Source: an uncultured bacterium (GTDB taxonomy: Bacteria; Babelota; Babeliae; Babelales; Vermiphilaceae). From it: a stretch of DNA of 64,000 nt. The stretch spans positions 416,001 through 480,000 of the forward strand of contig OY968764.1 of the NCBI GenBank assembly GCA_963695335.1, read 5' to 3'. The notes under the pieces are model-generated. The model had not been told where the DNA came from. It made no database searches and saw nothing but the letters and a program-made list of their open reading frames with translations. The translations under genes and the position numbers were made by a program. Numbering within the stretch: position 1 is the first letter of the stretch; each line of letters begins with the position of its first letter. Of this stretch, positions 4,822 to 54,274 are shown one piece after another.

Positions 4822-7614
4822 ATGAATTTTGATCCTAAAAAAACATTATTTCTTATCGACGGCTCTTCATTTTTATACCGTGCATACTACGGCCTTAAGC
4901 CATTGCATTCACCATCAGGTGTGGCAGTGCAAGCGGTGTTTAGTTTTTGCCGCATGATGAAAAAACTTATTGATACATATAAACCAGAATATGTTGCGCT
5001 CGTATGGGATAGTAAAGGTAAAACAACACGTCATACAATTTTTCCAGAATACAAAGCAACGCGTCAAGCACCACCAAGTGATATATTTGAGCAAAAAGAG
5101 TTAATTATTCAGTTTGCTCAATCTATTGGTATGCCGCAAGTACAGCAAACTGGAATTGAAGCTGATGATTTGATGTTTTCTTTAGCAAAAGACTGGGTCA
5201 GCACATCAGCTGCCCTTCGACAAGCTTCCGACTTCGCCGAGGCTTCTTCGGACGTACAGGGCGAGCGGGAGGCGGATAAGACAGTTGTGTTTGTAACCCT
5301 TGATAAAGATATGGGTCAAGCATTAACACTTGGGCAACAAATATATTTACTCGATGCATTTAAAGATCAGTTCACTGACGCTGCAGCAATGCAAATAAAA
5401 ATGGAAATTCCAGTAGAAAAAATGCCATTTTATTTTGCACTGCTTGGTGATGCTTCAGATAATATTCCGGGTGTAAAAGGGATTGGCAAAAAAACAGCGG
5501 TAGATTTGGTCAATCAGTTTGATTCACTCGAAGATATGTATGATAGACTTAATGAAATAAAAAAGGCTGGTGTAAAAACTGCATTATTAGAACAAAGAGA
5601 TAATGCGTTTTTGAGTTTCCAGCTTTTTCTGTTGCAATACACAGCACTGAACATGAGTTCAGAACAATTACTGTTTAATGCACAGAATTGGAAGCATGCA
5701 CGTCCACTGTTTGAAGAGCTTGGTTTTAAATCATTGCTCGTTACAGCGGGGGAAACAAAAGAAGAACGTGCAAAAGATGTGCAAGCTAAAATTGAATATT
5801 GGAAGAAATACAATTTTATTAATGTGACTACCGCGCAGCAATTGCATGATATGTGTGAGTATCTTAAAAAAGAAGGCGCATTTGCGCTCGACACAGAAAC
5901 TACTGGTTTATCGCCATTAGAAGTTGATTTAGTGGGAATTTCATTTTCATGTGATAAAGGAGTTGCATATTACGTTCCATGTGGTCATAAAACGGGCGAA
6001 CAACAACTTTCTTGTGATGAAATTATTGCAATATTGCGACCAATTTTAGAAAGTTCACAGTATAAAAAATATTTGCACAACGCAAAGTACGATATGTTAG
6101 TGCTCAGCAGTCATGGTATTGAATTAGCTGGTGTTGCACTTGATACACTTGTGGGCGCAAACTTAATTATTAAAGAATGGCAGAGCGCTGGTTTAAAAAA
6201 ACTGTCGCATGCGTTTTTTAATGAAGAGATGTTAACGTTTGAAGATGTAGTAAAGACGGGAAAATACAAAGACTTCTCTTTTGTACCAGTTGAACTAGCT
6301 GGGCTCTATTCATGCGCGGATTCGTATCAAACATATCGCCTTGTTGCGATCATCAAAGAAGCGTTTGAACAAGATAAAAAATTGTATGATTTGTATACAA
6401 ACATTGAACACCCATTGATTGAAGTTTTGTATGAGATGGAAAAAGAGGGTGTCAATTTAGATACGCATTTATTGCGTGAGCTGAATATAAAAGTTACGGC
6501 AGATTTGGCGGTGATTGATGCAGAAATTGCGCATGTTGTGGGTAAAGAAAAAATTAATCTTAATTCGCCAGCGCAAATGGAACATCTTTTGTTTGATGTG
6601 CTGCAGTTGCCACCACAAAAAAAGAGCCCAACGGGTAAATTTTCAACTGATGCAGAAGTGCTTAAAGCGTTAGCAACAATGCACCCGATTCCTGCATTGA
6701 TTATTAAATATCGTGAGTTGGCAAAACTGAAAAATACTTATATCGATGCCTTACCAACATACGTAAATAAAAAAACAGATCGTGTGCATACAACATTCAG
6801 TCAAACATCCGTTGCAACAGGGCGGCTTGCAAGCTCCAATCCTAATTTACAAAATATTCCTGCAGATGCATCTGGATACGGTATAGAAGTACGTGCAGCA
6901 TTCAAAGCGGGTGCAGGGCGTTTATTTATTTCTGCTGACTATTCGCAAATTGAGTTGCGCGTGCTTGCGTATTTGTCACAAGACAAAAATTTAATGAATG
7001 CATTTTTACGTGGGCATGATATTCACACCGAAACTGCTGCGCGTTTATTTGATGTTGAGTTGGCAGCGGTAACGCATGAACAAAGACAACTTGGTAAACG
7101 TATTAATTTTAGTGTTTTGTATGGAATGACACCGTACGGATTATCAAAAGATTTGGGTATTCCGTTCAAGCAAGCAAAGCAATATATTGAGCGTTATTTT
7201 CAGCAATATCCTGATGTTTCCACATGGATGGAATCTATTATAGAATTTGCGAAAAAACATGGATACGTGGAAACGTATTGGGGACGCAGACGGTATATTC
7301 CTGCTATTTATGAAAAAAATCGCACCATGTATGAAGAAGCATGCCGTGTAGCAATTAATACAGTTGCACAAGGAACTGCAGCAGAGATTATGAAATTGGG
7401 TATGTTGGCCGTCCGCAAAGAGTTGCAAACGCGTTTTAAAGATAGTTGCATTGTTTTACAAATTCATGATGAATTGATTGTGTCTGCGCCTGAGCAAGAT
7501 GCATTAGCAGTTGAGATGTTGGTTAAACGAGTGTTGGAATCTGTCGTAAAGTGGGATATCCCTCTTGATGTGAGCACGCGCAGTGGTGCTGATTGGAAAG
7601 AGATTACAAAATAA
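4822..7614 (+). CDS. polA: DNA polymerase I (with in-frame palindromic insert)
   Basis: LIDGSSFLYRAYY, EADD, GDASDNIPGVKGIG, DTETTG, ADYSQIELR, QIHDEL. Confidence 0.99.
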   Translation: MNFDPKKTLFLIDGSSFLYRAYYGLKPLHSPSGVAVQAVFSFCRMMKKLIDTYKPEYVALVWDSKGKTTRHTIFPEYKATRQAPPSDIFEQKELIIQFAQSIGMPQVQQTGIEADDLMFSLAKDWVSTSAALRQASDFAEASSDVQGEREADKTVVFVTLDKDMGQALTLGQQIYLLDAFKDQFTDAAAMQIKMEIPVEKMPFYFALLGDASDNIPGVKGIGKKTAVDLVNQFDSLEDMYDRLNEIKKAGVKTALLEQRDNAFLSFQLFLLQYTALNMSSEQLLFNAQNWKHARPLFEELGFKSLLVTAGETKEERAKDVQAKIEYWKKYNFINVTTAQQLHDMCEYLKKEGAFALDTETTGLSPLEVDLVGISFSCDKGVAYYVPCGHKTGEQQLSCDEIIAILRPILESSQYKKYLHNAKYDMLVLSSHGIELAGVALDTLVGANLIIKEWQSAGLKKLSHAFFNEEMLTFEDVVKTGKYKDFSFVPVELAGLYSCADSYQTYRLVAIIKEAFEQDKKLYDLYTNIEHPLIEVLYEMEKEGVNLDTHLLRELNIKVTADLAVIDAEIAHVVGKEKINLNSPAQMEHLLFDVLQLPPQKKSPTGKFSTDAEVLKALATMHPIPALIIKYRELAKLKNTYIDALPTYVNKKTDRVHTTFSQTSVATGRLASSNPNLQNIPADASGYGIEVRAAFKAGAGRLFISADYSQIELRVLAYLSQDKNLMNAFLRGHDIHTETAARLFDVELAAVTHEQRQLGKRINFSVLYGMTPYGLSKDLGIPFKQAKQYIERYFQQYPDVSTWMESIIEFAKKHGYVETYWGRRRYIPAIYEKNRTMYEEACRVAINTVAQGTAAEIMKLGMLAVRKELQTRFKDSCIVLQIHDELIVSAPEQDALAVEMLVKRVLESVVKWDIPLDVSTRSGADWKEITK
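5211..5268. repeat. Nested type A/B palindromic element inside polA
   Basis: GCCCTTCGACAAGCT[TCCGACTTCGCCGAGGCTTCTTCGGACGTA]CAGGGCGAGCGG. Confidence 0.85.
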
Positions 7615-7640
7615 AAAGAGCCCCAGAAATGGGGCTCATA
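7585..7640 (+). repeat. 56-bp direct repeat copy 1 (polA 3' end plus terminator)
   Basis: Identical to 8406..8461. Confidence 0.95.
7612..7640. terminator. Intrinsic terminator hairpin
   Basis: AAAAA-GAGCCCCA-GAAA-TGGGGCTC between convergent genes. Confidence 0.75.
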
Positions 7641-7642
7641 AT

Positions 7643-7972
7643 TTAGCATTTTTTAGTTGTTTTTTTATGTTGTAGAGAAATTTTAAGTGAATATCCTAAT
7701 GCATGAGCAACTTTAGCAAGTTTAGATATAGATGTATTTGCATATCCACCATTTTCCATGCGAGCAACAGAAGGTTGCTTAACTTTTAGTTTTTTCGCTA
7801 AATCTTCTTGTGATATGTTTGATGATTTACGAGCTTTAATAAACTCCATCATAAGTTCAAATTCAGGGCGCAATGCTTCATATTCCGCTCGTACCTTTGC
7901 ATTTTTTAACACTTCTTCTCTAAATGTTTTATAATCTGGCAGTGTTTTAAGGGTTGGTCGTTTTTTATTCAT
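7643..7972 (-). CDS. HigA-like XRE HTH antitoxin
   Basis: AEYEAL, ARKSSNISQEDLAKKL..KQPSVARMENG; downstream of and overlapping the toxin gene. Confidence 0.9.
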   Translation of the reverse strand: MNKKRPTLKTLPDYKTFREEVLKNAKVRAEYEALRPEFELMMEFIKARKSSNISQEDLAKKLKVKQPSVARMENGGYANTSISKLAKVAHALGYSLKISLQHKKTTKKC

Positions 7973-8297: not shown

Positions 8298-8405
8298 GAA
8301 CTCTCACTCTTTAAAAATATTCTTTATATGTTTTAATATAACATATTTTTTATATTTTGTGCAATGAGGATGTCAAGAGTTTTTTTAATGTTACAATATG
8401 TGGGG

Positions 8406-8461
8406 GGTGCTGATTGGAAAGAGATTACAAAATAAAAAGAGCCCCAGAAATGGGGCTCATA
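8406..8461 (+). repeat. 56-bp direct repeat copy 2
   Basis: Identical to 7585..7640. Confidence 0.95.
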
Positions 8462-8476
8462 TTTTTGCATATTTTT

Positions 8477-10360: not shown

Positions 10361-10948
10361 TTACATCACTGATTGGCCGATGTATTCTTGCGATTGGCCA
10401 ACTTCCTGACCAGCAGGCGCTGCAGGAGCTGATTGGTTACCTTTAACTTGTGCACTGATTTCTTTAACTTTATCAGCCAATTTTTGTCCCAAAAGAACTA
10501 AGTAAGCTTTGTTTGCCATTGCTTTATACAGTTTGGCTCCATATTCACTCATTTTGAGGTTAGGGAATAAGTCTGATAAGTTATTATCTACTTTTATATT
10601 TTTGAATGAACCGTTTTTATTTACAATTTCATCATATTGCATAGATACAATAGCATCCATATTTGTTGTAAAATCGGTGCTCATAATAAGTTTTTCAAGA
10701 ACCGGTTTGATAGCATTGTATAAAGTTGAAGAAGCCTTTTCTGCCATTTTTATATGAATACGTTCTGCATTCCATGCACGTTTAATAGCATTCATTTGTG
10801 TATTAATGTGATTGAGTTGGACTGTAAGAGTAGCAATATCAGCTGCCTGCCCTTCGAAGCCTTGGCGAAGTAGGGTGGGAGCCATTGCCATTATTGTTTG
10901 AGCTGTGGCAAGCAGCGTTACTATGCAAAAAGATAATTTTTTAATCAT
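10361..10948 (-). CDS. Exported hypothetical protein with in-frame palindromic insert
   Basis: GAGGA RBS, signal peptide; type B repeat at 10847..10875 encodes PTLLRQGFEGQ. Confidence 0.75.
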   Translation of the reverse strand: MIKKLSFCIVTLLATAQTIMAMAPTLLRQGFEGQAADIATLTVQLNHINTQMNAIKRAWNAERIHIKMAEKASSTLYNAIKPVLEKLIMSTDFTTNMDAIVSMQYDEIVNKNGSFKNIKVDNNLSDLFPNLKMSEYGAKLYKAMANKAYLVLLGQKLADKVKEISAQVKGNQSAPAAPAGQEVGQSQEYIGQSVM

Positions 10949-12117: not shown

Positions 12118-12119
12118 GT

Positions 12120-12267
12120 TTAACCCCATCTTCTTAGCCCCATTTTCAGACAAGTCTTTCAATGGGGACACTTAAGAACAAGATAATTGGGTAAAACAAA
12201 GTAGTGGTGAGGTTTACCCTACGTCCTTCGACAGGCTCAGGATGAGCGGAAGATAGCGTAGTAGGGT
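12120..12267. repeat. Composite palindromic repeats (types C, A, B)
   Basis: TTAACCCCATCTTC...ATGGGGAC; CCCTAC[CCTTCGACAGGCTCAGGATGAGCGG]...GCGTAGTAGGG. Confidence 0.75.
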
Positions 12268-12324
12268 TGAGAAAAATAAAAAAAGGTATCTTAAATAGTG
12301 TGCTGTTAAAAGAATGGGTAGCTG

Positions 12325-13484: not shown

Positions 13485-15206
13485 ATGAAAACTCGTGATA
13501 TTAAAACAGCTGATTCTGCGCAAATAGAAGAGTCGCAAACAGCACAAACCGTGGAATCTTCTCAGGCTACTCCACAACCAACTCGTACACGTGCTCCAAG
13601 AGCACCTAAAAAAGATAAAGTGGTAGAAACAGCTACACATACGGTGTCTGAAGAGCCACAAAAGTCAGTAACATCCGACTATGCTTCGTCCTCCGCTAAA
13701 AGCTACGGAGAACACAGCAAGGCTTCCTCTGTTGCTGAAGCTATGAAGGACAGGTCGTCGGACAGGTCAGAATCAACAAGGCCTGCAGCGCAAGAGCATT
13801 ATTTTGAGCGCGATGCAATGCCGCAAGATCGTAGAAATGGAAATGGGCAGTATGTCCAACCTCGTGAAGTACGCGAAGAATATAATCGTCCAACGCAACA
13901 ATATTCTCAGCAAGGTTCATACGATCGTTCAGGATACACACGTCGACCATTAGAAGATTTATCATTGTCAGAACTCGTTCAATATGCTCGCCGTTATGGT
14001 ATCATGGGCGCGGCAATTACTAAAAAAGATGAGTTGCTCAAAAAAGTTCGTTACGCTGAAGAACATCCAAATGCTGAAATGGCAGTCGAGGGGGTTTTAG
14101 AAAAATTACCTGATGGATTTGGATTCTTGCGTTCAGCATTATATGATTACGTTTCAGGGCCAGATGATATTTATGTTTCTCCATCACAAATTAGACGTTT
14201 TGGTTTGCGTACGGGAGACACTATCAAGGGTGAAATAAGAAAACCAAAAGAAGGTGAAAAATATTTTGCGCTATTAAAAGTATCGCAAGTAAATTACGCT
14301 GAACCTCTTTCTATGATTGATAGACCTCATTTTGACAGCTTGAGTCCGCAGCATCCTATTTCAAAATTCAATCTTGAATTTGATCCAACAGCACTTTCTA
14401 CCCGTATTCTTGATGTATTCACACCGATTGGTAAAGGTCAGCGTGGTTTGATTGTAGCTCCTCCTAAAGTTGGTAAAACGTTGTTGCTTAAAGAAATTGC
14501 GCGAGCAATTATTAGCAATCATCCTGAAGCACATCTTATGGTACTTTGCGTGGATGAACGTCCTGAAGAAGTTGCTGATATGCGCCGTACGCTTAAAGGC
14601 ACCACAGCAGAAGTTATCAGTTCTACATTTGATGAACCTGCAGAGCGTCATGTTCAAGTGGCGGAAATTGTTTTGGAAAAAGCAAAACGTTTAGTTGAAT
14701 GTAACAAAGATGTGGTTATTATTCTTGATTCTATCACTCGTCTTGCGCGTGCATATAATACCGTTGCTCCTGCATCAGGAAAAGTACTGACTGGTGGTAT
14801 TGATGCATACGCACTGCAACATCCAAAACGATTTTTTGGTGCAGCACGTGCCACTGAAGAAGCTGGTTCATTAACTATTTTAGCTTCTGCATTGGTAGAA
14901 ACAGGTTCGCGTATGGATGAAGTTATTTTTGAAGAGTTTAAAGGTACGGGTAACATGGAAATGAATATGACGCGTAAACTTTCACACCGTCGTATTTTCC
15001 CAGCCTTTGATCTGTTAACTTCTGGAACTCGTCGTGATGACTTATTACTTTCTGAAGAAGAACTTAATAAAGTTTGGATTCTGCAGAAATTACTTTCTAC
15101 GATGAATACTATAGAAGGTATGGAATTCTTGATTGATAAAATGAAGAAGACCAAAACCAATGCTGAATTTTTTGAATCGATCAATAAACGAACCGCTGAA
15201 ATGTAA
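13485..15206 (+). CDS. rho: Transcription termination factor Rho with long N-terminal extension
   Basis: [68 protein letters not shown]. Confidence 0.99.
13674..13767. repeat. Multiply nested type B elements inside rho
   Basis: TCCGACTA...GTCCTCCGCTAAAAGCTACGGAG...AAGGCTTC...GCTGAAGCTATGAAGGACAGG...TCGTCGGACAGG. Confidence 0.75.
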
Positions 15207-17932: not shown

Positions 17933-20446
17933 CTATTTTGTTGACCAGAAATAGTTTTTTATTTGTTCGAGATAGTTTCCTTTTACAGGGTAAGCTTTTT
18001 GTACATCTTGCTCTCGTTTTGTGTCTATACCTAGGTTCTGTTGAGTTTTCATCGTAACCATATGCAAGTTCCCACAAAAGAAAGAAAAGATAAAAAATTT
18101 CGTGCCGATTTATCAAAACGAGCAAACACTCTTCTAAAGTGTTTTATCTTTGAAAACAAGCATTCAATCGCATGTCTCTCTTTATATAGATGTTCATCAT
18201 ATTGATATTGTTCTTTACGATTGGATCTTGGAGGAATAACGGGAACACAATTTTTTTCTATTAATTTCGAACGTAATTCAGTGGAATCATATCCTTTATC
18301 CGCTATTACATATGATTCAGAAATATCTTTTAATAAAATATCAGCCTGAGTAATATCATTACGCTGACCAGGAGTAATAACAAATCTTAAAGGATTGCCT
18401 AAAGCATCTACTGTTGCATGTATCTTACTTGTAAAACCACCTTTACTTCTTCCCAGTCCTTCATTTTTAAATTGATCATATCCAGCAGAACAGGCATGTG
18501 CGCGGACTATCGTGGCATCAATCATTACATATTCCATATCGGGATCCTCTGCACAAAAACTGAGTAATTTTTCCCAAATATGTTTTTTTGACCAAGCATT
18601 AAATCTGCTGAACACACTATTCCAATTTCCATATTTTTCCGGCAACTCTCTCCATTGTGCTCCTGTTCTTGCCATCCAAAATGTCCCTTCTATAAACTTT
18701 TTACAGTCCTTTTCTTCTTTTATATAAATGTTTTTTTGCTGTTTTAAAAAATTAAAAATTTTGCTCCAGGCCATTTCGCTGATATACTCTTTTTTCATGA
18801 TAGCACCGTTTTAGTGATTTGGTTTTTGCTTTTTCGGTGTTATCATACTTCAAAACTTATCTTTTCAAAAACTCAACAGAACCTAAAGATTCTTCATAAG
18901 CTTTTTGTAATTCTTGCTGATGTTGAATATTCTTTTCTTCGTTTTGTTCTGCTGCTTTGTGTGCTAATTGTTGTTCTTGTTTTTGCCGTAAAGCTTGTAT
19001 TTCACGTTTTTCTTGTTTTCGTTTTTTAGCCTCTTCTTCTAATTCCCTTCGAGCTATTGTTAGTTCTTTTTGAGTCTTTTCTTCTAATTCTTTTTGAGTT
19101 TTTTGTTGCCGTTCTTCCTGGAGAGCTTCATCTCTCAGTTTTGGCTCTCCCATTTTTTTAATTTCTTGAGTGACTTGTTGTTTGTTTTGCCGTTGTTCTT
19201 TTTCAAATGCTATACCTGTTTGGGGGTTGTAGGAGGTGAATGCGCCATTTTTGCCAACAACAACAAGTTCATGTGGAGATTTAAAGTAGAAAGCATTATC
19301 AACGGTGAATGTTGTCAGAGAAGATGAAAGTTTTTCCAAATTAACGAGTGAATAGATTATATTTTGTCCGGTAAAAAATTCACGCGGTGCACCAAGTTCT
19401 ACTAAACGGGTCTCTTTATCATCAGGGCTAAAGCAGTAGGTAACAACATTTGTGGCTATGTTATCGAGTTTTTTTCCGGTTGTTGTATTAATAAGATACA
19501 TTGCATTTTTTTCTTTGAAAACAACAAGGTAATTTTTTAATGGGCTCAGGATATATGCCATAACATGTGTTTCTGTTATTTTTTTCCCATGAGCTAGCAT
19601 TATAGAGAGTTCTTTGGTTGCATCATAGTATGTAATTTTTTTTGAAACAGTGAGGTCGTTATTGATTGTTTCAGTAATATTGGGAGTTGATGAGAACCAT
19701 CTGTTTCTTTGTACGGTAATTTGCCGTAGGGTGTCATTATCATATTGTACAACAAGATTATCTTCGCTTGAGTAATCGATTGTTTGTACATTTTCAAATG
19801 TTTTAAGAACTGATTTTGACGAAATATCAAACAGTTCGTACCGAGTAGTATCATTCTGAGGTCTTGCGCCAAGAGGCAACGCTCCCTCGTTAGTATGAGT
19901 TGTATCTAAATGTCTTCTGGCAATGATGAGTGTTGTTTCATCTGGGCTAAATTCATAGGTGATTAAATCACCATCAAAAGAGCCAACTTCCGTGAGACTT
20001 TGTAGATCTATTATTTTTGTAACATGAGTGATAGTCGGTATTTTTTCCCCTATAGGACGTTTTAACAGACTGCTCAGTAAGTACGTGATTGTTTTTTCAG
20101 AGAGACCTTGTGATGGAGATGCTGTGTTTGTGATTACTTGCACCATGAGATATTTTTTTTGAGGACTAAAATTATAGAAGCTCACTTGTGTTGGAGATAT
20201 GGGAGTTGTTTTGAGTGTGTCGTTTTCAACAAAGTTAAGGATCATTCTTTTTTGGTCGGGTTCATAAAAAATGACTGGAATTTGTTGTGCTTCTTCTGAT
20301 TTTAGTTCTGTTTGTTTATGTATTTGTGGTGTTTTCATCTGTTGGAGATACTTTGCCGTGTACTGTTTGCCCTGTTGTGTCATGCGCATACACAAGAGAT
20401 TTGTACTCACGAGTGCACATACGAGTGTTATTTTTATACATTTCAT
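17933..20446 (-). CDS. Exported beta-propeller-like/coiled-coil protein, interrupted near its C-terminus by IS5
   Basis: Repeated FSP..K/T strands and a charged coiled coil; removing the IS and one TA restores the frame ...ESLGIDTKREQ...YFWSTK*. Confidence 0.75.
18034..18883 (-). mobile_element. IS5-family element copy 1 (850 bp, TA duplication)
   Basis: Terminal IR GGTTCTGTTGAGTTTT/AAAACTCAACAGAACC flanked by TA. Confidence 0.95.
18049..18798 (-). CDS. IS5-family (IS427-like) DDE transposase
   Basis: RTGAQWRELP..YG.W, IDATIVRAH, LGRSKGGFTSKIHA, ADKGYD, YKERHAIECLF. Confidence 0.97.
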   Translation of the reverse strand: MKKEYISEMAWSKIFNFLKQQKNIYIKEEKDCKKFIEGTFWMARTGAQWRELPEKYGNWNSVFSRFNAWSKKHIWEKLLSFCAEDPDMEYVMIDATIVRAHACSAGYDQFKNEGLGRSKGGFTSKIHATVDALGNPLRFVITPGQRNDITQADILLKDISESYVIADKGYDSTELRSKLIEKNCVPVIPPRSNRKEQYQYDEHLYKERHAIECLFSKIKHFRRVFARFDKSARNFLSFLSFVGTCIWLR

Positions 20447-22206: not shown

Positions 22207-22332
22207 CGCAGCTCCCCCTTTTTAATAATTATGATTTTAAAATAATATTTTTCATTTGAAATTGTAAAGGGTTGGTTGAGAATTGGTTTGTTTCCGTAAA
22301 AGGATTTTTTTGGTATTGTATGGTTCTCTCCT

Positions 22333-22470
22333 GCGCTCGTCCTGAGCCTGTTTAACCCCATCTTCAGTTCCTTCAGACGGGGACCCCGGTTTGGAGTGAA
22401 ACGAAAACTGGGGCAAAAGGATATCTTTGAGCGCTCGAGGATACCCTTCAACAAGTTCAGGGCGAGCGCG
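22333..22470. repeat. REPIN-like inverted pair of type A arms with a type C unit nested in the left arm
   Basis: GCGCTCGTCCTGAGCCTG[TTTAACCCCATC...TGGGGC]AAAAGGA ... CCCTTCAACAAGTTCAGGGCGAGCGC. Confidence 0.85.
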
Positions 22471-22553: not shown

Positions 22554-23354
22554 ATGAATATTGCAAAACGCATGGCGTTTATTACGTGTAGCTTAATGAT
22601 GAGTGTGATGATGCACGGAATGGAATTAGAAAAATCGAATGAACCATTTATTTCTCAAGATCGTATTTTTGTGTGGACTGGTTATAATCCTCAATATCAT
22701 GTAGTAACCGTGCTTGGTAACTATTCTGAACATGATATTTTACAAAAAAATGATCAACCTCACAAAATTTATAGAGCTCAGTTGGTCATTCAAAAAAATA
22801 AAGAAGGTGAAGAGGGTAAGAAGTATTTTGTAAAGACTACTCAAGAATATATTTGCAATGGAACAGAAGCTAAGTTTAAAAATCTTACAAAATTAGAAAG
22901 AATTGAAGTGCCAACTTTTTGGTCTCAAGAACAGTGTGATGGAATACGGTATAAATTGAATAGCTGTTTAGATAGAAAAAAGGCAGTTTTAGCGATTGAT
23001 AATGATGGTAATGAGTATTTTATTACGCATGTATGGGATGAAAATCGTGATAATTCAAAAAAGGTACGTGTATACAATACCGAAAAACATCGAGCTGAGT
23101 TGATTCCTGTATTAAACAAAAAGAAGATGTTGTTAGAAATACAAAATTTAAAACAAGACGTTGCAGAATTTAAAAAGATTGCAGTACAGATACAAATAGC
23201 AAAAGATAGGTTCAATGCTGAGAAATTGCCAGAGAGACTTAATCGTAGTCGTAATAATGACTATTTTGGACTTGTAATGAGTTGTGCTACTTACGGAGGT
23301 TTAATTGTACTTGGAATTCTTCTTGCAGCGCTTATTCCCCAATATCAAGGTTGA
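22554..23354 (+). CDS. Exported hypothetical protein with C-terminal TM anchor
   Basis: AAGGA RBS, signal peptide then MELE, C-terminal hydrophobic helix. Confidence 0.75.
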   Translation: MNIAKRMAFITCSLMMSVMMHGMELEKSNEPFISQDRIFVWTGYNPQYHVVTVLGNYSEHDILQKNDQPHKIYRAQLVIQKNKEGEEGKKYFVKTTQEYICNGTEAKFKNLTKLERIEVPTFWSQEQCDGIRYKLNSCLDRKKAVLAIDNDGNEYFITHVWDENRDNSKKVRVYNTEKHRAELIPVLNKKKMLLEIQNLKQDVAEFKKIAVQIQIAKDRFNAEKLPERLNRSRNNDYFGLVMSCATYGGLIVLGILLAALIPQYQG

Positions 23355-24396
23355 AATCTGAAAAACGGCCCTGTTGCGCTTTATAATTACCGACAAAAGC
23401 AATCATAGCAGCATTATCCGTGCAATATTTGCGTGAAGGGTGGAAGAATGGAATGTTGTGTGTAGTGGAGAATGTTTTAAGGCGTTCAGTGATATATGCA
23501 TTACATGCAACACCACCAACAAACGTAATCGCTTGTACGTGCGGATGCGCTGCTAACGCCAATTCTAATTTTTGTTCAAAAATATCTGCCATGCACACAA
23601 GAAGTGAGCTGGCAACTTCTTTTATAAATTGTTCATCATCAGAACGTAGGAATTTTTTTGCGGAAAGATCGTATGCATTTTGTTTTACAAGATCATAAAG
23701 CACTGCAGTTTTAAGTCCGGAAAAACTGAAATCTAATGTTTTTTGTTTGCTGCGTGGGTAGTGGAAAAAATCTTGGAAATTAACTTCACGCGCAAGTTTT
23801 TCAATCACTGGTCCGCCTGGATATGGTAAATTCATCAGTTTTGCAATTTTATCAAACGCTTCACCTGCCGCATCATCTTGCGTTTCTCCAAGCACTTCAT
23901 AATCACCAAAATCTTTTATTAAATAAAGCGATGTATGTCCACCCGATGCGGTGAGGCATAGATGAGGAAATGGAACATTGTGTTCTATTGAAGCAGAAAA
24001 TGCATGCCCTTCTAAGTGGTTAATTCCTATGAGTTTCTTTTTCTCCCTACTACGCTCTCCGAGCTTCGAAGGGCAGGTCTTGGCGTACGCAATTGCTTTT
24101 GCAAAACAGATACCAACAAGTAATGATCCAGGAAGGCCTGGTTTGTTGGTAACGGCAATCACATCAATATCATCAAGTGACATGTTTGCTTGTTCAAGTG
24201 CTGCTGCAACTATGGGATTAATTTTTTCCAGTTGTGAGCGTGATGCAAGTTCAGGGATAACACCACCAAATTTTTTGTGTAGTTCAATTTGTGAGTATAA
24301 AGCGCTGGAAAGTAAACCTTGTGTGCTGTGGTATACTGCAGCTGCTGTTTCATCACATGAAGTTTCTATGCCGAGGGTGATAAATGGGTGTTTCAT
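23332..24396 (-). CDS. tsaD: tRNA N6-adenosine threonylcarbamoyltransferase (with in-frame palindromic insert)
   Basis: LGIETSCDETAAAV, GGVIPELASR, NHLEGH, SGGHT, DDAAGEAFDK, SFSGLKTA, CTDNAAMIA. Confidence 0.98.
   Translation of the reverse strand: MKHPFITLGIETSCDETAAAVYHSTQGLLSSALYSQIELHKKFGGVIPELASRSQLEKINPIVAAALEQANMSLDDIDVIAVTNKPGLPGSLLVGICFAKAIAYAKTCPSKLGERSREKKKLIGINHLEGHAFSASIEHNVPFPHLCLTASGGHTSLYLIKDFGDYEVLGETQDDAAGEAFDKIAKLMNLPYPGGPVIEKLAREVNFQDFFHYPRSKQKTLDFSFSGLKTAVLYDLVKQNAYDLSAKKFLRSDDEQFIKEVASSLLVCMADIFEQKLELALAAHPHVQAITFVGGVACNAYITERLKTFSTTHNIPFFHPSRKYCTDNAAMIAFVGNYKAQQGRFSDFNLDIGE
24045..24077. repeat. Type B element inside tsaD
   Basis: CCCTACTACGCTCTCCGAGCTTCGAAGGGCAGG, encoding CPSKLGERSR on the minus strand. 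Confidence 0.85.
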
Positions 24397-24421
24397 TTTC
24401 TTAATAATTCGTTCTTTTTTT

Positions 24422-24624
24422 CCGCTCGCCCTGAGTGTTTTTGTCTTCAAAAACGTATCGAAGGGTATGCGGAAATTTAGTAATTTTAAGATTTTTTTAT
24501 TTTGCACCCTTCGATACATTTTACTACGCTAAAGCTTCGCAAAACACTCAGGGCGAGCGGGTTGTATATTCAAATTTCTTTTAACGGGGGTCCCCAATTG
24601 GAACATAGTGTAGATTGGGGTTAA
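24422..24624. repeat. REPIN-like type A inverted pair plus type C unit
   Basis: CCGCTCGCCCTGAGTG...GTATCGAAGGGT / ACCCTTCGATAC...CACTCAGGGCGAGCGG; TTAACGGGGGTCCCCAAT...TTGGGGTTAA. Confidence 0.88.
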
Positions 24625-27684: not shown

Positions 27685-27791
27685 GTTTAGAAATATAAAA
27701 AATGTGGCTATCTTTGAAAAATAGGATGGCCGCATCTTTTTTTGGTAGGCAAATCAAGTTCTTTTTTTGTTGGCGACAGCCAGAAGACCGT

Positions 27792-27842
27792 GTCCTTCCG
27801 AAGCCTTGGCGAAGGAGGAAGCCCGATAAGGGCGAAGACTGG
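27792..27842. repeat. Type B unit plus inverted copy of the tmRNA-trailer start
   Basis: GTCCTTCCGAAGCCTTGGCGAAGGAGG then GAAGCCCGATAAGGGCGAAGACTGG. Confidence 0.7.
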
Positions 27843-28796: not shown

Positions 28797-29161
28797 GGGG
28801 GCGTACTGGCTTCGACGTGTTGTTAGTCGCCTTGAGAGCATGCCGAGCGTTGATTGAGTGCTCGTTAAACAATTGATCGAAAAACAAATGCAAATCAATT
28901 TGATTTTGCTCCAGCTGTTGCTTAGGCAATAAGGTGGCTTATTGGATTAACGTGTCTGTCAGTTGAACCAATTCGTATAATAAAAAGATAGAACTTCCGG
29001 GCGAGATTGAACTGTTTAGTAGCCCGAGCACGTACCACAAGTAGTCTCATATAATCTGCTGTGTCTTTGAGGTGTTATATGAGTATATTCAGAGAATAAG
29101 CATGTAGCGCTTGGGGTTATTTGTAATGCGGACATGGGTTCGATTCCCATCGCCTCCACCA
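28797..29161 (+). ncRNA. ssrA: tmRNA; tag peptide (A)ANQFDFAPAVA*
   Basis: GGGGGCG/CGCCTCC-ACCA acceptor stem with G3.U, GGCTTCGAC, T-arm ATGGGTTCGATTCCCAT, tag ORF 28890..28925; smpB nearby. Confidence 0.96.
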
Positions 29162-29338
29162 GTCTTCGCCCTTACAGGCTTCGTCTGGCTGCGCCGCAAA
29201 AGAAAGAGTTAGCAAATATAAAAAGTTTGATAGCAGAAGGCGAAGACTGTCCGACGTAGCTTTAGCGTAGACGGACGGCTTGGTACGGTTTGCCCTTCGT
29301 AGCTCGTTAGAGCGTAGTAGGGCCAGCTTTTTAAAGGT
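29155..29338 (+). repeat. Direct repeat left copy (tmRNA 3' end plus type B units)
   Basis: Near identity with 38719..38902. Confidence 0.95.
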
Positions 29339-29434
29339 TGGGCTAAGAATTAAAATTAAAGATCGATACTCAAAGCGAAGGCTGTCCGCCAAAGCCTTGG
29401 CGACGGCGGGCGATAAAATAAAAAGTCATTATAT

Positions 29435-33041: not shown

Positions 33042-33957
33042 ATGTTAAATTTATTTGAGTTCACTAGAGGTCTTTGCCCCGCGTTGCATTAATATACGTA
33101 TTGCACCAGTTTTTCCGAGGGATTCTGCATAGTCCAATGGGGTTTGCATGTCTTTGCCATCAGGGTTAGCTTTAAGATTTATGTCTGCGCCAGCATTTAA
33201 TAAATTTTCGATTCCATCGTTCGCCACTTTGCTATTGTTATTCATCCAGATCGCAAAAAATAATGCTGGCATAGGAGAAAGATTACGTACTTCTGTAGTT
33301 ATATTCTGATTAATATCTATTCCATTCTTGAGGCAAAAGGTAATTACATTTTTGTCCCATTCATAAGAGCCATTATTCCATATTTTATCTATTATTTTAT
33401 CATAACCATGAAGTTTAAGCTGTTGTATTAATTCAAAAAAATCAGCCCTTATTTGTGAGGAACGAATGATCTCAAGTCCATTTTTTTGAATCATGTCTGC
33501 TATGGTTGGTACCTTCGAACCGTTATTCAAAATTTTAACACCAGCAAAATCTACTCCTTTAGCAACAAGCGATGACATAGTCTTGAGTATTAGAGGGTCA
33601 GTATTAGTTGATCTATAGGATCCCTGCATATTATTAAAAACATCCACAACAGCTTGAGCAACTGATTTTCCTTTGTAAGGAATATCAGTTTTTGCTCCAG
33701 ATTCAAGCAATGCATTTACTATGCCAAATTTTCCAAGTAATAATGCCTGCCATAAAGGTGTTTTACCATCCGATTCAACATTATTTATGTCAGCACCTGC
33801 GCTAATTGCTTTCTTAGCTCCCTCTATTGAACCATCAAGTATGGCCTTCATTAGTTGTGATTGAATTTCGGGGTTGACTGTAGGTTGGGTTGTTGGTTGT
33901 ATGGGAGTTATGGTTGTTGTTTGTATCCCCTTGGACTTTTCTTCTTCTTTTGTTCTA

Positions 33958-34807
33958 GGTTCTGTTGAGTTTTTGAAAAGATAAGTTTTGAAGTATGATA
34001 ACACCGAAAAAGCAAAAACCAAATCACTAAAACGGTGCTATCATGAAAAAAGAGTATATCAGCGAAATGGCCTGGAGCAAAATTTTTAATTTTTTAAAAC
34101 AGCAAAAAAACATTTATATAAAAGAAGAAAAGGACTGTAAAAAGTTTATAGAAGGGACATTTTGGATGGCAAGAACAGGAGCACAATGGAGAGAGTTGCC
34201 GGAAAAATATGGAAATTGGAATAGTGTGTTCAGCAGATTTAATGCTTGGTCAAAAAAACATATTTGGGAAAAATTACTCAGTTTTTGTGCAGAGGATCCC
34301 GATATGGAATATGTAATGATTGATGCCACGATAGTCCGCGCACATGCCTGTTCTGCTGGATATGATCAATTTAAAAATGAAGGACTGGGAAGAAGTAAAG
34401 GTGGTTTTACAAGTAAGATACATGCAACAGTAGATGCTTTAGGCAATCCTTTAAGATTTGTTATTACTCCTGGTCAGCGTAATGATATTACTCAGGCTGA
34501 TATTTTATTAAAAGATATTTCTGAATCATATGTAATAGCGGATAAAGGATATGATTCCACTGAATTACGTTCGAAATTAATAGAAAAAAATTGTGTTCCC
34601 GTTATTCCTCCAAGATCCAATCGTAAAGAACAATATCAATATGATGAACATCTATATAAAGAGAGACATGCGATTGAATGCTTGTTTTCAAAGATAAAAC
34701 ACTTTAGAAGAGTGTTTGCTCGTTTTGATAAATCGGCACGAAATTTTTTATCTTTTCTTTCTTTTGTGGGAACTTGCATATGGTTACGATGAAAACTCAA
34801 CAGAACC
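33958..34807 (+). mobile_element. IS5-family element copy 2 (850 bp, inserted in CTAG, TA duplicated)
   Basis: Same IRs and identical transposase as copy 1, inverted orientation. Confidence 0.95.
34043..34792 (+). CDS. IS5-family DDE transposase
   Basis: Protein identical to 18049..18798. Confidence 0.97.
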   Translation: MKKEYISEMAWSKIFNFLKQQKNIYIKEEKDCKKFIEGTFWMARTGAQWRELPEKYGNWNSVFSRFNAWSKKHIWEKLLSFCAEDPDMEYVMIDATIVRAHACSAGYDQFKNEGLGRSKGGFTSKIHATVDALGNPLRFVITPGQRNDITQADILLKDISESYVIADKGYDSTELRSKLIEKNCVPVIPPRSNRKEQYQYDEHLYKERHAIECLFSKIKHFRRVFARFDKSARNFLSFLSFVGTCIWLR

Positions 34808-35007
34808 TAGTTTGTTGTGTTTTAGCAATATGTTCACCAGCTTTTTGTGCTGCTTTTTCAAGTGCTGATAGAGTTTCTTCTAATGATGTTTTTTTATTCT
34901 TATTAGGTATTTCCGTTGCAAAAATGAGTGTTGAATATATGCCTAAACAAGCAAATAAAGTTTTGAGTAGTTTTACATTACACATAAAAATATCCATTAA
35001 TGGTGTT

Positions 35008-36648
35008 TTATAATTTTAAATTTTTATAAACCTTTTTTCTTAAGCCAATTTCGTGAATTTTAATTTCATGGTTTGCATCATCGACTGAAAAAATAATTCT
35101 ATAGCCGCCAATGCGTAATCGGTATTTGCCAGATCCATCTTTAAGTTTTTTTACATCACAACCATGATTAGGCCAATTTTTAAGTTGTTTTATACCATTC
35201 TTTATTGTGTCATTGAGTAATCGAGCGTTAATTTTTTTATCGATTAAAATTTCATATTGATTCTGTGCAGAAGAGGATGTAATGTTTGCAGTTTTAGGGG
35301 TTGAGGCGATATAGCTAGGAGTATTGGTTATTGGAGTTATTGATGCAGTTGATGTTGGAATTGTTGTCGATGTAGTCGATGTTGCTAAAGTAGTATTTAC
35401 AGGGGTTGTTTCTTCTGGTTCAGGTAAGGATGATTTTGTTTTTGAGGGTTCGGTGGATGTTTGAGGAGCAGTTTGTGTAGGTGTTGTTTGTGCCAACTGT
35501 TTGCCGCTTTTAATTGTTTGTTTTTTCGGTTCAATTTTTTTTGGCTGTTTTTTCCCCTGTTGTATTGTCTTTTTTTGTTGTTTTTGCAACTTTTCTTCAT
35601 TTAATTCTACAATAAAAGCGCGCATATTTTCATCAGCTTGTTTTTGAGAAATGATTGATATGCCATATTGGCTAAATAAATGTAATATGGCATTATTTCC
35701 TTTATCATAGGCTATATCTAAAGGTGTAATGCCGTACACGCTTTCTGCATTAATGTCGGCATTGGCAATGAGTAATGATTTGCAAATCTCTATATTTCCA
35801 AACCAAACAGCTGTATGTAAAGGGGTAAAGCCGCCAATTGTTTTTGAATTTACATCAGCACCTTTTTTTATAAGATAATTTACAATATTGAGATGTTGAG
35901 CTTTACAGGCAATATTGAGTGGAGTTGCTCCATCAGTCATTGTTTTTTCTTCTATATTAGCCTTAGCATCAACTAAGAGACGTACAATATTCAGTGTTCC
36001 AAATTGACAGGCTGCATGAAGTGCGCTTCTATTTTTTTTGTCTACAATATTTACATTAGCTCCTTTTTTGATTAAAAAATCAACGATTTGATCATGTTTA
36101 TATTCACAGGCAAATATTAAAGGAGTTACGCCTCTACCATTTTGAATATCTTTGTCGGCATCATGATCAATTAAAGTTTTTACAAGATCTAATAGACCTA
36201 ATTCACATACAAGATGGAGGGGCGTTCCTAGGTCTGTGTTTTGAATATTTGCATTTGCACCATTGTTGAGCAAAAGATTTACAATAGATATACGTTTAAA
36301 TTGACAGGCAAGATATAATGGAGAATCTCCTTCTTTAGACTGAGCATTTACATCAGCTCCTAGTTCAATCAAAAGTTTTGCTATATTAAAATCATTTTGT
36401 GCGCAAGCATAGAATAATGGGGTACCGCCCGTGGCATCACGAGCATTTGCATCAGCGCCTTGTTGGATAAAATATTCTATATTACTAGGGAGAGGTTTCT
36501 CTTTTTTACATTCACTAAATAATAGGTTGTTTAAAATAGTTTGTTTTTTTTCCAGTTGTTTTTCATTTGATTCCATTGTTAGTGTTAATGGTGCATAGCT
36601 CAGTAAGGCTGTCCATAGTATAGATAAACAAATAGTTTTACAATTCAT
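35008..36648 (-). CDS. Exported ankyrin-repeat protein with C-terminal RelE/ParE-like domain
   Basis: Signal peptide, ~9 ankyrin repeats, K/Q then T/S/P linker, DVKKLK...YRLRIGGYRIIFSVDD...I.IHEIGLRKKVY. Confidence 0.9.
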   Translation of the reverse strand: MNCKTICLSILWTALLSYAPLTLTMESNEKQLEKKQTILNNLLFSECKKEKPLPSNIEYFIQQGADANARDATGGTPLFYACAQNDFNIAKLLIELGADVNAQSKEGDSPLYLACQFKRISIVNLLLNNGANANIQNTDLGTPLHLVCELGLLDLVKTLIDHDADKDIQNGRGVTPLIFACEYKHDQIVDFLIKKGANVNIVDKKNRSALHAACQFGTLNIVRLLVDAKANIEEKTMTDGATPLNIACKAQHLNIVNYLIKKGADVNSKTIGGFTPLHTAVWFGNIEICKSLLIANADINAESVYGITPLDIAYDKGNNAILHLFSQYGISIISQKQADENMRAFIVELNEEKLQKQQKKTIQQGKKQPKKIEPKKQTIKSGKQLAQTTPTQTAPQTSTEPSKTKSSLPEPEETTPVNTTLATSTTSTTIPTSTASITPITNTPSYIASTPKTANITSSSAQNQYEILIDKKINARLLNDTIKNGIKQLKNWPNHGCDVKKLKDGSGKYRLRIGGYRIIFSVDDANHEIKIHEIGLRKKVYKNLKL

Positions 36649-38596: not shown

Positions 38597-38718
38597 ATAA
38601 ACAAGTATTATTGATTTAAGAGATATTTATAAGCTGGCTTTTCGTAATTGAGTATTAAATTCTAGAACTAGTGGTGCCATTTTTTTCCAATTAAAAGTTC
38701 GAAGTGTATCGCATGTCT

Positions 38719-38902
38719 TCCACCAGTCTTCGCCCTTACAGGCTTCGTCTGGCTGCGCCGCAAAAGAAAGAGTTAGCAAATATAAAAAGTTTGATAGCAG
38801 AAGGCGAAGACTGTCCGACGTAGCTTTAGCGTAGACGGACGGCTTGGTACGGTTTGCCCTTCGTAGCTTGTTAGAGCGTAGTAGGGCCAGCTTCTTAAAG
38901 GT
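38719..38902 (+). repeat. Direct repeat right copy (attR-like)
   Basis: Preceded by degenerate GTTCGA...ATCGC; starts TCCACCA. Confidence 0.95.
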
Positions 38903-48114: not shown

Positions 48115-48274
48115 GCGCTTTAACCCTTCAACAAGTTCAGGGTGAGCGCTTTGGGATTAATTCTCTTTTTTAAAGAGCTCTAAAAAGTGCAATAAAGCTT
48201 TGTAGAGGCTGGCGATAGCAAAGAGTGTTTATGCTTCATCGCGCTCACCCTGAACTTGTTGAAGGGTTAAGCGC
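48115..48274. repeat. REPIN-like inverted pair of type A arms
   Basis: GCGCTTTAACCCTTCAACAAGTTCAGGGTGAGCGC ... GCGCTCACCCTGAACTTGTTGAAGGGTTAAGCGC. Confidence 0.9.
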
Positions 48275-50025: not shown

Positions 50026-50332
50026 TATTTCGACCCGACTACGCCAAGGCTTCGTCGGGCGGGCAGGCGTTTACTACTGAGCAACGTTGAAGTATCATCA
50101 CGAATGGGAAGAGATATCTGTTTATCCCCCCCCGCTCGCCCTGAGTGTTTTTGCGAAGCAAAAATGTATCGAAGGGTATGCGGAAAATTAACAAATTAAA
50201 GTTATTTTTATGTTGCACCCTTCGACCCAGCCTTCGTTAAAACTTCGGCGGGCAGGCAAGTCCGCCATAGCCTTGGCGCCGGCGGATACATTTTACTACG
50301 TTATACTTCGTAAAACACTCAGGGCGAGCGGG
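50026..50332. repeat. Composite nested palindromic repeats (A with B inserts)
   Basis: CCCGACTACGCCAAGGCTTCGTCGGG; CCGCTCGCCCTGAGTG..CGAAGGGT; CCCTTCGA[two B units]TACATTTT..CACTCAGGGCGAGCGG. Confidence 0.85.
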
Positions 50333-51963: not shown

Positions 51964-52056
51964 GGTAATACGAATTCTGGTGTGTTAGGGTTGAATTGAT
52001 CTATGTTCAGTATAGTGGATTTAATAGTACTTTGCACTGTAAAAAAAGGAGATTGC

Positions 52057-52419
52057 ATGAAATCTGTTATAGTGTCATTGGCATTAATAAGCATCTGTTT
52101 TTCAGGTAGCATATATTCTATGGAAGAGCAAGATAATACCAAAGCCATCAATAATGCAATAAAGGCACAGAAGTTATATGAAAAAGGACAAGAAGCTATT
52201 GTAAAAATGGGAGCTAGTATGGTATTTACGTGTTGTCCTGATCGAGAAAGTTATTTAATGCATGAGGCAACAGAAAAAAGTAAAATTAATGATCTTTTTT
52301 GTAAAAGTAGGCGTCGTATTCGAGATGTACTCAATGATATAAATGCAGATGAAGTTACAAAGAAAACTGTGTTAGATATAGAGAAAAAAATTGATGCAAT
52401 ATCATGGGCGAGTAAGTAA
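52057..52419 (+). CDS. Exported hypothetical protein
   Basis: AAGGAG RBS, signal peptide IYS-MEEQ. Confidence 0.7.
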   Translation: MKSVIVSLALISICFSGSIYSMEEQDNTKAINNAIKAQKLYEKGQEAIVKMGASMVFTCCPDRESYLMHEATEKSKINDLFCKSRRRIRDVLNDINADEVTKKTVLDIEKKIDAISWASK

Positions 52420-53752: not shown

Positions 53753-53755
53753 TTT

Positions 53756-54274
53756 TTATTCGTTTAACGAAGAAGTAATCGTTATCTTTTTCTGCTCATC
53801 ACGTATGATGTCAAAATGACGATCTCTGCATAGTGATTTTTGTGCTGGCGTGGACACCGCCTTATTTTCTTTTATTATTTTGCCCGAAACCTTGCCCTTC
53901 GTAGCTTTAGCGGAGTAGGGTTGCTTTTTGGTCTTACTTTTTTCTTCTACCCATGTGATGGCAATTTTTCTCCAGGGAGCTTTTTCAAAATTATGCATTT
54001 TTTGTTCTTGTGTAGGGTTTTCAACATAATACACCTGATCAAGGCAGAAGCCCCATTTGATTTCTGGTATGTCTTTTCTGCCAGGAGTGAAGGTGATCAT
54101 GGATTGTGGTTTTACTAATTGTTTGTAAAGAGGTTCTTTGATACCATCATTGCCTGTGTATTGAATTGCAACGGCTATTGGGTTTTCGGTACCGTTATGG
54201 AAACTGAATTCATAGGCTTTTACCGATATGATGGTACAGCAAGCGAGGAAGGCGGATGTATATGCATATTTCAT
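53756..54274 (-). CDS. Exported hypothetical protein with in-frame palindromic insert
   Basis: Paralog of 54350..55108; type B repeat 53894..53920 encodes PYSAKATKG. Confidence 0.75.
   Translation of the reverse strand: MKYAYTSAFLACCTIISVKAYEFSFHNGTENPIAVAIQYTGNDGIKEPLYKQLVKPQSMITFTPGRKDIPEIKWGFCLDQVYYVENPTQEQKMHNFEKAPWRKIAITWVEEKSKTKKQPYSAKATKGKVSGKIIKENKAVSTPAQKSLCRDRHFDIIRDEQKKITITSSLNE

Follow-up and report, generated by a model that had tools for sequence, protein, structure and literature searches.

Two families of ∼30-base hairpin repeats inserted in frame in bacterial genes, and their association with stand-alone GIY-YIG nucleases

Short palindromic repeats inside genes

The in-frame insertion of short repeats into bacterial genes is already published, and so is the pairing of such hairpins with nuclease genes. 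According to the accessible parts of Di Nocera et al. 2013 (PMC3733652), REPs are 20–40 nt long, lie mostly between genes as singles and dimers, and are also read in frame as peptides of 7–11 residues. These parts also describe REP inserts in DNA polymerase I and the single units of the Rickettsia elements RPE-4 and RPE-6, which correspond to 8–10 residues, and the paper closes on the open question of how REP/RPE-like repeats spread without a transposase. Longer Rickettsia palindromic elements, of about 105–150 bp, encode a conserved peptide (Ogata et al., as summarised in PMC10969869 and PMC3184786). The Ssn nucleases of the cd10448 clade, as presented by Chenal et al. 2025 (PMC11893778), are single-domain GIY-YIG proteins of ∼90 residues associated with oriented hairpins that carry a non-palindromic tag; symbiont genomes contain their NTS/SRM in hundreds of copies that have no gene, the NTS rarely within genes (2%), and what has been demonstrated for SsnA is cutting alone.

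Here, we describe two hairpin families, A and B, found in a window of 64,000 nt (the whole stretch of DNA analysed) from an uncultured bacterium of the Vermiphilaceae, and in the genome to which it belongs. As with RPE-type elements, members of both families are inserted in frame in unrelated genes and are missing from orthologs. The long Rickettsia elements, from an intracellular bacterium, are selfish palindromes too, and unrelated proteins contain them as in-frame translated segments; they are, however, three to five times longer and have a conserved peptide, whereas the inserts considered here encode 8–12 residues in any of six frames. The initial annotation of this locus had set its repeats apart from Rickettsia elements as the longer ones, which is wrong in view of RPE-4 and RPE-6; the peptides listed for these two differ from those of A and B. 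The GTAG and CGTC REPs are alike in palindrome size, mostly intergenic location, dimers, mosaics, and the polA host. However, in GTAG REPs the GTAG is an unpaired terminal tag, whereas in family A this motif, if present, is within the paired stem, and the CGTC families have an A-T stem start and a CCA tail, both of which family B lacks. Moreover, the nesting rule, tRNA docking, and codon-level selection described below for A and B are not reported in the accessible text of PMC3733652, and none of five diagnostic A/B peptides was found in its supplements. Judging from these peptides, the text, and the SRM pattern of PMC11893778, as far as both sources are available, A or B may still overlap a family already listed; the two families and their nuclease partners, in a small-genome bacterium, appear to be undescribed.

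Hairpin units between and within genes

The family A unit consists of a 26-nt hairpin and a 4-nt tail, 30 nt in all, and is therefore in frame by default. Its ends are sharp at the hairpin base and variable at the unpaired tail, which reads CA(C/G/A)G, and no target-site duplication above chance was detected for this family (105 in-gene copies, 2–5 nt, 12 offsets). Nested insertions use one fixed site in the host repeat, and their sequence is often unlike that of the host unit. Nearest-neighbour DNA folding energies are weak (−0.6 to −8.3 kcal/mol) and uninformative, the informative feature being stem covariation. Apart from the five inserts in genes treated below, the units recorded in the window are the following:

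29159..29410, no strand assigned: family A hairpin starting on the CCA of the tmRNA itself (28797–29161), then three inverted A units
38723..38886, no strand assigned: A cluster of the tmRNA end present a second time, 9.5 kb downstream, 97% identical
55533..55656, minus strand: two family A units downstream of tRNA-Met (55388–55464)
59406..59482, no strand assigned: inverted family B pair of 77 nt, equal to both ends of the B–nuclease–B cassette joined without the gene
22332..22470, no strand assigned: inverted family B pair, the left unit with a nested third repeat type
24421..24561, no strand assigned: inverted family B pair with long loops, immediately upstream of tsaD
48123..48267, no strand assigned: inverted family B pair
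50034..50332, no strand assigned: mosaic of nested A and B units
12212..12270, no strand assigned: family B unit (12223–12250) nested in a family A unit, outer limits taken from the sequence itself
1613..1667, plus strand: family B unit with a long loop
13330..13364, minus strand: family A unit, intergenic, upstream of rho
27789..27819, minus strand: family A unit nested in another family A unit, intergenic

The first of these is the tRNA-docked nuclease cassette, discussed in the next section, in gene-less form. A third repeat type, a C-run/G-run hairpin, is also present. When the curated Rfam models were compared with the window, nothing but the tmRNA and tRNA scored above the cut-offs, and neither A nor B was matched.

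Five further inserts lie in genes:

5211..5269, plus strand: family B unit with a nested 30-nt family A unit (5227–5256), in frame in polA (4822–7614)
10846..10875, minus strand: family A unit (26-nt hairpin and 4-nt tail) in ORF 10361–10948, right behind a hydrophobic N-terminal stretch
13674..13766, plus strand: nest of three family A units, 93 nt in total, in the variable N-terminal region of rho (13485–15206)
24045..24077, plus strand: family A unit (29-nt hairpin and tail) in tsaD (23332–24396, minus strand), antisense to the gene
53891..53920, minus strand: family A unit in a Lys-rich linker of ORF 53756–54274

All five had been reported in the initial annotation, with coordinates and peptides that were confirmed; the single element it claimed proved to be two families, and its polA repeat, although in frame as stated, is not one unit but a B unit whose fixed nesting site is occupied by an A unit. 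This insert corresponds to a position between residues 128 and 136 of Taq polymerase, and that of tsaD to a helix-strand loop ahead of the H-x-x-x-H motif. The triple nesting in rho was read from the printed sequence, with the inner unit alone above the scan threshold.

Across the genome, models trained on intergenic copies gave 53 family A and 20 family B matches in 52 called genes, against 0–1 in shuffled genes; for weight matrices trained on intergenic copies only and used at 20 bits or more, the in-gene matches were 51 A and 20 B, against 0 in each of five shuffles. A strict structural descriptor gave 103 genome matches, 23 of them wholly within called genes, against 0–1 in each of 20 codon shuffles. 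The copies in genes are thus not due to chance. The gene calls come from a hexamer-based script, and matches near starts may be non-coding; one in-gene B match is no insert. Genes hold 53 of the 157 family A matches, the density being 13-fold (A) and 78-fold (B) lower than between genes. Ortholog matches add PheT, DnaG, FtsZ, FtsK, PGK, Ddl, DprA, and LigD to the hosts, in agreement with the earlier proposal that small selfish palindromes add peptide loops even to core enzymes such as those encoded by polA, tsaD, and rho; counts overlap somewhat, as 12 of 75 host ortholog groups were matched in more than one of three genomes. Orientation relative to replication is unbiased between genes (47/96, 44/83), while in genes it is 18/52 (p 0.04) in this genome and 15/37 in G008.

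Comparison with orthologs reveals empty sites, most clearly for polA and tsaD. The polA loop, obtained from 13 of 14 loci, measures 156 nt here, which is 57 nt longer than in G002, 108 nt in G005, and 87–93 nt in 11 further relatives; the tsaD loop is longer in three of the ten genus members examined and empty in seven. The other three cases speak less strongly for insertion. The site in ORF 10361–10948, compared by eye as a translation (like rho), is empty in G002 and G008 and holds a 5-residue relic in G005; orthologs of ORF 53756–54274, whose motif was unmatched in G005 and in four of eight relatives, are 14 residues shorter in G002 and merely 2–4 shorter in G005 and G008, the latter containing a decayed repeat copy; and the N-terminal region of rho varies across all relatives. 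The net gain is most often +30 or +33 nt (13 each among 52 pairwise rows, which are not independent), and some in-gene matches replace ortholog sequence with no lengthening (net 0 or −3). We also considered whether the tsaD insert of this genome (G000) and G002 is that of G005 inverted in place; this is unlikely, as the tail side and the junction differ. Three low-share DNA sequencing runs yielded short pieces only, none of them with a joint.

Partner nucleases and the spread of the hairpins

The initial annotation made no link with stand-alone GIY-YIG genes and tRNA ends, which was found here. Family A precedes Slx1-like GIY-YIG genes (clade 2) docked at tRNA ends, and family B flanks UPF0213-like ones (clade 1), all of them stand-alone, single-domain, and of 80–95 residues. 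The clade-2 nuclease of this genome is encoded at genome positions 895131–895367 and the clade-1 nuclease at 565584–565799. Of 11 clade-2 genes, nine have A upstream and none has B beside it; of 16 clade-1 genes, 12 have B beside them. At 63 clade-2 loci from metagenomes, A is upstream in 51 and downstream in two (shuffles, 0), with a tRNA or tmRNA within 400 nt at 37; the pattern search of the genome collection was too strict and returned four loci. UPF0213 and Slx1 are also the best structure matches of these nucleases, NCBIfam has no name for either, and in a tree both clades stand apart from three relatives' proteins with Ssn-type flanks (100/100 support, long branches).

Taken together, these data make it probable that the inserts are gene-less hairpin copies of two selfish cassettes, each built around a stand-alone GIY-YIG nuclease. 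The family A cassette would comprise a tRNA, an inverted hairpin pair, and the Slx1-like nuclease, docking on tRNA/tmRNA CCA ends, and family B would form the inverted ends of a cassette around the UPF0213-like nuclease. By analogy with Ssn, the nucleases may cut single-stranded DNA beside their own hairpin, and repair of the cut may copy the hairpin to new sites. Copies are seen both within genes and between them, those in genes persisting only as multiples of three and with the encoded peptide then softened, Phe/Tyr becoming Ser; the peptide would stay in the mature protein as a near-neutral loop. Mobilisation by the nucleases is what we infer from this pairing, although association alone does not establish movement.

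Ssn/SRM (PMC11893778) is a close parallel: A and B likewise flank a ∼90-residue single-domain GIY-YIG gene. However, the 2% of NTS in genes compares with 53 of 157 A matches, A docks on tRNA ends, and A and B match no SRM: the published pattern had 0 matches in this genome, G005, and G008, while it did match beside one of three Ssn-like genes of relatives. The 76–77 nt inverted B pair relates to the B–nuclease–B cassette as a MITE does to its IS, but only the family B pairs have terminal inverted repeats in common with an element that carries a gene, there is no DDE or HUH transposase and no target duplication for A, and single units insert alone.

The inserts might instead be real and translated yet spread by host repair alone, through template switching or microhomology-guided gene conversion at stable hairpins, with the GIY-YIG genes merely co-located. 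The lack of target duplication, the ragged tail ends, and the occasional target replacement do resemble repair, and the repeat-rich G007 and G033 have no clade-2 match. We nevertheless regard this explanation as unlikely, because the distribution of each hairpin family, in genomes as well as in metagenome contigs of 31–66% GC, follows that of its own nuclease clade, and because nested inserts use one fixed site and are often unlike the host unit. Clade 2 occurs in 18 of 20 genomes with at least three strict A copies versus 6 of 21 others (kin not being independent), and 15 of the 17 genomes that lack it have 0–2. Six clade-2 genomes have 0–1 strict A copies, which, like G007 and G033, counts against the nuclease reading.

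Considerably less probable is the view of A and B as classical REPs that depend for their movement on a Y1 (RAYT/IS200) transposase, even if the REP-like size, the dimers and mosaics, the GTAG in many A units, and three Y1 genes in the genome invite the comparison. In REP/RAYT systems the Y1 gene is flanked by the repeats, which is not so for A or B: all three Y1 genes are IS200-like, identical to one another, and equipped with hairpins of their own; around two of them no A or B lies closer than 500 nt, and the third has an in-gene copy only, 315 nt away. Any Y1 match occurs in just 6 of 20 A-rich genomes. This mobiliser was rejected, being largely refuted by gene flanks and genome distribution.

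Selection on the encoded peptides

In genes, copies are found in both orientations and all six frames, one of which holds 66 of 110 in-gene copies, whereas any given frame is open in 54–87% of the 169 intergenic copies. A change of hairpin Phe/Tyr codons to Ser is confined to arms that the reading frame translates as Phe/Tyr; in this genome 15 of 37 such arms have it, as against 1/63 other in-gene arms and 5/180 intergenic arms, and the arm that carries the change switches with the reading frame. The corresponding values are 7/25 versus 0/47 in G008, and 4/15 versus 1/19 in G005, where the difference is not significant (p 0.15). In-gene copies are kept in loops and disordered stretches; among 120 TsaD homologs, 11 of 12 internal inserts fall in one surface loop, the other elsewhere inside the protein, and the model places the insert in a low-confidence coil between helix 89–104 and strand 121–126. 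The frame-specific Ser change and the concentration in the TsaD loop thus indicate, at the level of sequence, that the peptides are made and that selection filters them, and the Ser change lends indirect support to their retention in the expressed protein.

Frame-breaking A variants occur between genes only. Nested inserts are multiples of three in 13/13 cases in genes versus 11/18 between genes (Fisher p 0.025), and hairpin lengths that make a multiple of three with the 4-nt tail account for 94/107 in genes and 112/202 outside. The earlier view that selection keeps the in-frame, tolerated events is upheld by the nesting lengths, the Ser change, and the TsaD loop, with the 30-nt default length sharing the credit. 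A search for repeat-broken genes yielded one candidate, a PEP synthase whose frame changes where the repeat is inserted but which has several other breaks; the remaining candidates were in frame, lay ahead of the gene start, or fell where two genes meet.

Could the loops be adaptive, with the host driving the supply of new surface peptides or of regulation? The same TsaD loop has been struck repeatedly and certain inserts are common to sister genomes, but at least nine unrelated peptides occupy that loop, no insert is present in 108 of the 119 homologs that have the loop motif, and inserts decay or become partly deleted, so that this reading is very improbable. Least credible is removal from RNA or protein as a micro-intron or mini-intein, leaving normal enzymes: the inserts do fold as hairpins and have core genes among their hosts, but they come in both orientations and all six frames with no frame-breaking copy in an intact gene, their junctions and peptides share no conserved residues, and the frame bias and frame-specific Ser change are explicable only if the peptide is made, which renders unlikely the RNA-level removal that the initial annotation had left possible.

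With the cassette origin as the preferred reading, one may tentatively go further, to a view that we hold with less than even confidence: stand-alone GIY-YIG nucleases outside the Ssn clade would drive transposase-free, transposition-like copying, the tRNA-docked cassette shedding a 30-nt frame-neutral hairpin that inserts in genes and, at a fixed site, in other hairpins, and this hairpin would be the lineage's main source of new loops inside proteins. Of 11 clean lineage-specific insertions of at least seven residues, repeats supply eight, as new internal loops in conserved proteins, and the other three are tandem expansions. The codon-level evidence bears on whether in-gene repeat copies are translated, and the two nuclease-hairpin pairs are testable, the unit (30 nt) and the nested target site both being defined exactly. 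The Ssn toolbox could gain two clades and, if the proposal is true, the repeats would amount to a natural insertion scan mapping the tolerant loops of essential enzymes.

Two families of hairpin repeats

The initial annotation had placed copies of a short palindrome within polA, ORF 10361–10948, rho, tsaD and ORF 53756–54274, and all five sites, with their coordinates and peptides, are as it gave them. It had also proposed one element of about 30 bp; small palindromes do lie in genes, but they form two families, A and B, rather than one. Family A is a 26-nt hairpin (variants 25–32 nt) whose 6-bp stem leads through a TWC/TWC internal loop to a small apical stem-loop, and an unpaired tail, CA(C/G/A)G, comes after the hairpin; the stem varies with compensation, its first pair being, e.g., C-G (147) or T-A (98). 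Family B is a 27–28 nt unit found mostly as inverted pairs, and 61 of 78 close pairs share one arrangement. A third type, a C-run ... G-run hairpin that in many cases has an internal loop like that of A and lies inside a B unit, was seen at 1440–1525, 12118–12175, 22350–22410 and 59516–59559 of the window.

The study genome is a single contig of 1.37 Mb with 35.7% GC (window, C1:416001–480000), in which our own hexamer script called 1301 genes; the identical procedure was run on two relatives, G005 (nearly whole) and G008 (whole), whose PolA proteins are 87% and 81% identical to that of the study genome. A strict descriptor found 103 A matches genome-wide, 23 of them in genes, against 0–1 in 20 codon shuffles, and matrices built from intergenic copies alone gave, at 20 bits, 51 A and 20 B matches in genes against none in five shuffles. 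At working thresholds, 53 A matches lie in genes, 2 partly so and 102 outside (family B: 20, 10 and 224), and 52 genes carry a match, a count that errs both ways: one B match is no insert, some start-proximal matches may be non-coding, and gene calling overlooked one small gene. The in-gene copies number 19 A and 11 B in G005, and 38 of each in G008. Density is 13-fold (A) and 78-fold (B) lower in genic than in intergenic DNA. Repeats can also inflate gene calls, since the longest tsaD ORF (23332–24519) extends 41 codons upstream, across a B pair, beyond the start at 24396 judged from relatives.

In-gene copies as insertions

Judged by sequence comparison, the in-gene copies are insertions. 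The PolA loop measures 156 nt in the study genome, 108 in G005 and 87–93 in 11 other relatives, and its excess of 57 nt over the relative G002 equals 27 + 30. Of 10 genus members, 3 have an insert in the TsaD loop: the study genome and G002 share one, and that of G005 has the opposite orientation and a shifted junction. The other three sites are less clean: G002 and G008 have no insert in ORF 10361 and G005 has a relic there, the G002 counterpart of ORF 53756 is shorter and that of G008 contains a relic, and the N-terminal region of rho varies in all relatives. A duplicate of the polA terminator and final codons (7585–7654) lies 821 nt downstream (8406–8475), around two small ORFs, and Lon protease (59730–62100) is apparently split into an N-terminal ORF (59730–60236) and a remainder (60331–62100).

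Orthologs were scanned for 42 of the 47 host genes located outside the window; among them are PheT, DnaG, FtsZ, FtsK, PGK, D-Ala ligase, DprA, LigD and ABC proteins, and 21 had no Pfam match. In 52 pairwise comparisons with well-aligned flanks, where one insert may yield two rows, the net differences were +30 (13 rows), +33 (13), +27 (5) and +36 nt (4), more rarely +24 (3), +60 (2) and +15 (1); in most of the 11 rows at +3 or less the relative has an insert too, either one of its own or a decayed one, and two of these rows are equal-length replacements. Eight of 11 clean insertions of at least 7 residues present in the study genome and in neither relative are repeats. Two genes outside the window deserve mention: that of PEP synthase (C1:1141700–1144130), which is broken by several frame changes and stops and whose A insert occupies the loop that also carries one in G005, and a double D-Ala-D-Ala ligase gene (C1:149120–151516), with five B matches and one site shared with G005 and G008, where the repeat mosaics differ.

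Since the sequence of the host unit is known, nested copies reveal exact insert ends. Eleven A-in-A inserts directly follow the same RRGCT-like motif, at the base of the apical stem, B units hosting inserts are cut at the matching place, and the insert comprises the hairpin plus 4 or 5 nt. Excluding long-loop B units, all 13 nested inserts in genes are multiples of three, compared with 11 of 18 between genes, so that the unit is frame-neutral by default and selection removes the rest; the proposal that only in-frame events are kept stands with this amendment. No target duplication was detectable at 105 copies, and orientation showed no clear bias relative to replication.

Translation and selection

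The insert peptides appear to be made and filtered by selection. Of 110 copies, 66 use one frame, which gives peptides rich in Ser, Ala and Lys, although any given frame is open in 54–87% of intergenic copies. TWC arms that encode Phe/Tyr in the host's frame have turned into Ser codons in 15 of 37 cases; the corresponding figures are 1 of 63 for in-gene arms with any other reading and 5 of 180 for arms between genes. The changed arm moves from left to right according to frame. G008 repeats the pattern (7/25, 0/47 and 3/162), and G005 shows the same direction without significance (4/15 vs 1/19). When the 120 best of 5641 TsaD homologs were compared, the loop occupied in the study genome held an insert in 11 of them, and only 1 had an internal insert elsewhere; the loop inserts comprise at least nine different peptides from both families, their repeat origin being read from the peptides. 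In agreement with the suggestion of surface-tolerated sites, the TsaD insert is a coil between helix and strand in the AlphaFold model (pLDDT 61–72; mean 91.8), and in PDB alignments this insert and that of PolA both fall at short connectors. The observation of in-gene repeats is confirmed and its initial interpretation partly supported.

Linked GIY-YIG nucleases and tRNA docking

The likely source of the hairpins is a set of GIY-YIG nuclease cassettes. Besides UvrC, the study genome has three stand-alone genes. One sits between inverted B units, and each of the other two comes after an inverted A pair, in one case behind tRNA-Arg.

In a tree of 30 proteins (the best match per relative plus motif finds in three genomes; bootstrap convergence incomplete), 12 of 16 clade 1 genes are flanked by B on at least one side, and clade 2 genes have A upstream in 9 of 11 and a tRNA or tmRNA in 7 of 11, with B beside none of the 11; three Ssn-like proteins with other hairpins fall separately. 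Structure matches are UPF0213 (E 8e-15) for clade 1, and Slx1 (1e-9) and UPF0213 (2e-9) for clade 2. The best 80 of 553 clade 2 metagenome loci range from 31 to 66% GC, and in the 63 with enough upstream DNA, A lies upstream in 51 and downstream in 2 (shuffled, 0), 37 follow a tRNA or tmRNA, and 20 are docked by a strict test. At least three strict A copies occur in 20 of 41 genomes, 18 of them with clade 2 and 6 with a Y1 transposase; 15 of the 17 genomes lacking clade 2 have 0–2. The common 76–77 nt B pair equals both cassette ends without the nuclease gene.

An A lies within 150 nt of 20 of the 35 tRNA/tmRNA genes of the study genome, and in 17 of 35 a hairpin starts on the gene's own CCA (16 scored at the offset plus one nested case). 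A pattern search of a genome collection found this layout in four named records, three from Dependentiae/Babeliales. A 97% copy of the 3' end of the tmRNA and its hairpin cluster (29145–29338) lies 9.5 kb downstream (38709–38902), and the two enclose ankyrin genes together with one IS5-family copy, as in an att-like island; no integrase was seen in the window. Ankyrin genes are present in the genome, one of their products (35008–36648) ending in a weak ParE-like domain (E 1e-5), and an IS4/5-family element occurs as two identical (100%) inverted copies (18031–18885 and 33956–34810).

Insertion here works as in Rickettsia palindromic elements (PMC10969869, PMC3184786) and intragenic REPs; PMC3733652 describes single REP inserts of 8–10 residues in Rickettsia and DNA polymerase I, and a search of its supplements for five diagnostic A/B peptides had no match. 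Membership of A and B among RAYT-associated repeats failed on testing, and membership in SRM is rejected, as the published SRM pattern has no match in the study genome. A literature search, largely outside subscription papers, returned nothing on the two families, Dependentiae repeats or tRNA-docked GIY-YIG cassettes, and the relevant passages of bioRxiv 10.64898/2026.09.22.753630 leave GIY-YIG unmentioned. Ssn and SRM are defined in PMC11893778, which raises the mobile-element idea and reports that SsnA cuts single-stranded DNA beside its hairpin; by analogy with SsnA, we infer that the nucleases would move hairpins to new sites, and the A/B repeats and their nucleases probably behave like an Ssn pair. 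Ssn-like nucleases with TGTCATC-type hairpins are found in other Babeliales (L160, L161, L164 and L171, in G018, G035, G033 and G039, respectively), and thus three nuclease–hairpin pairs coexist in the order.
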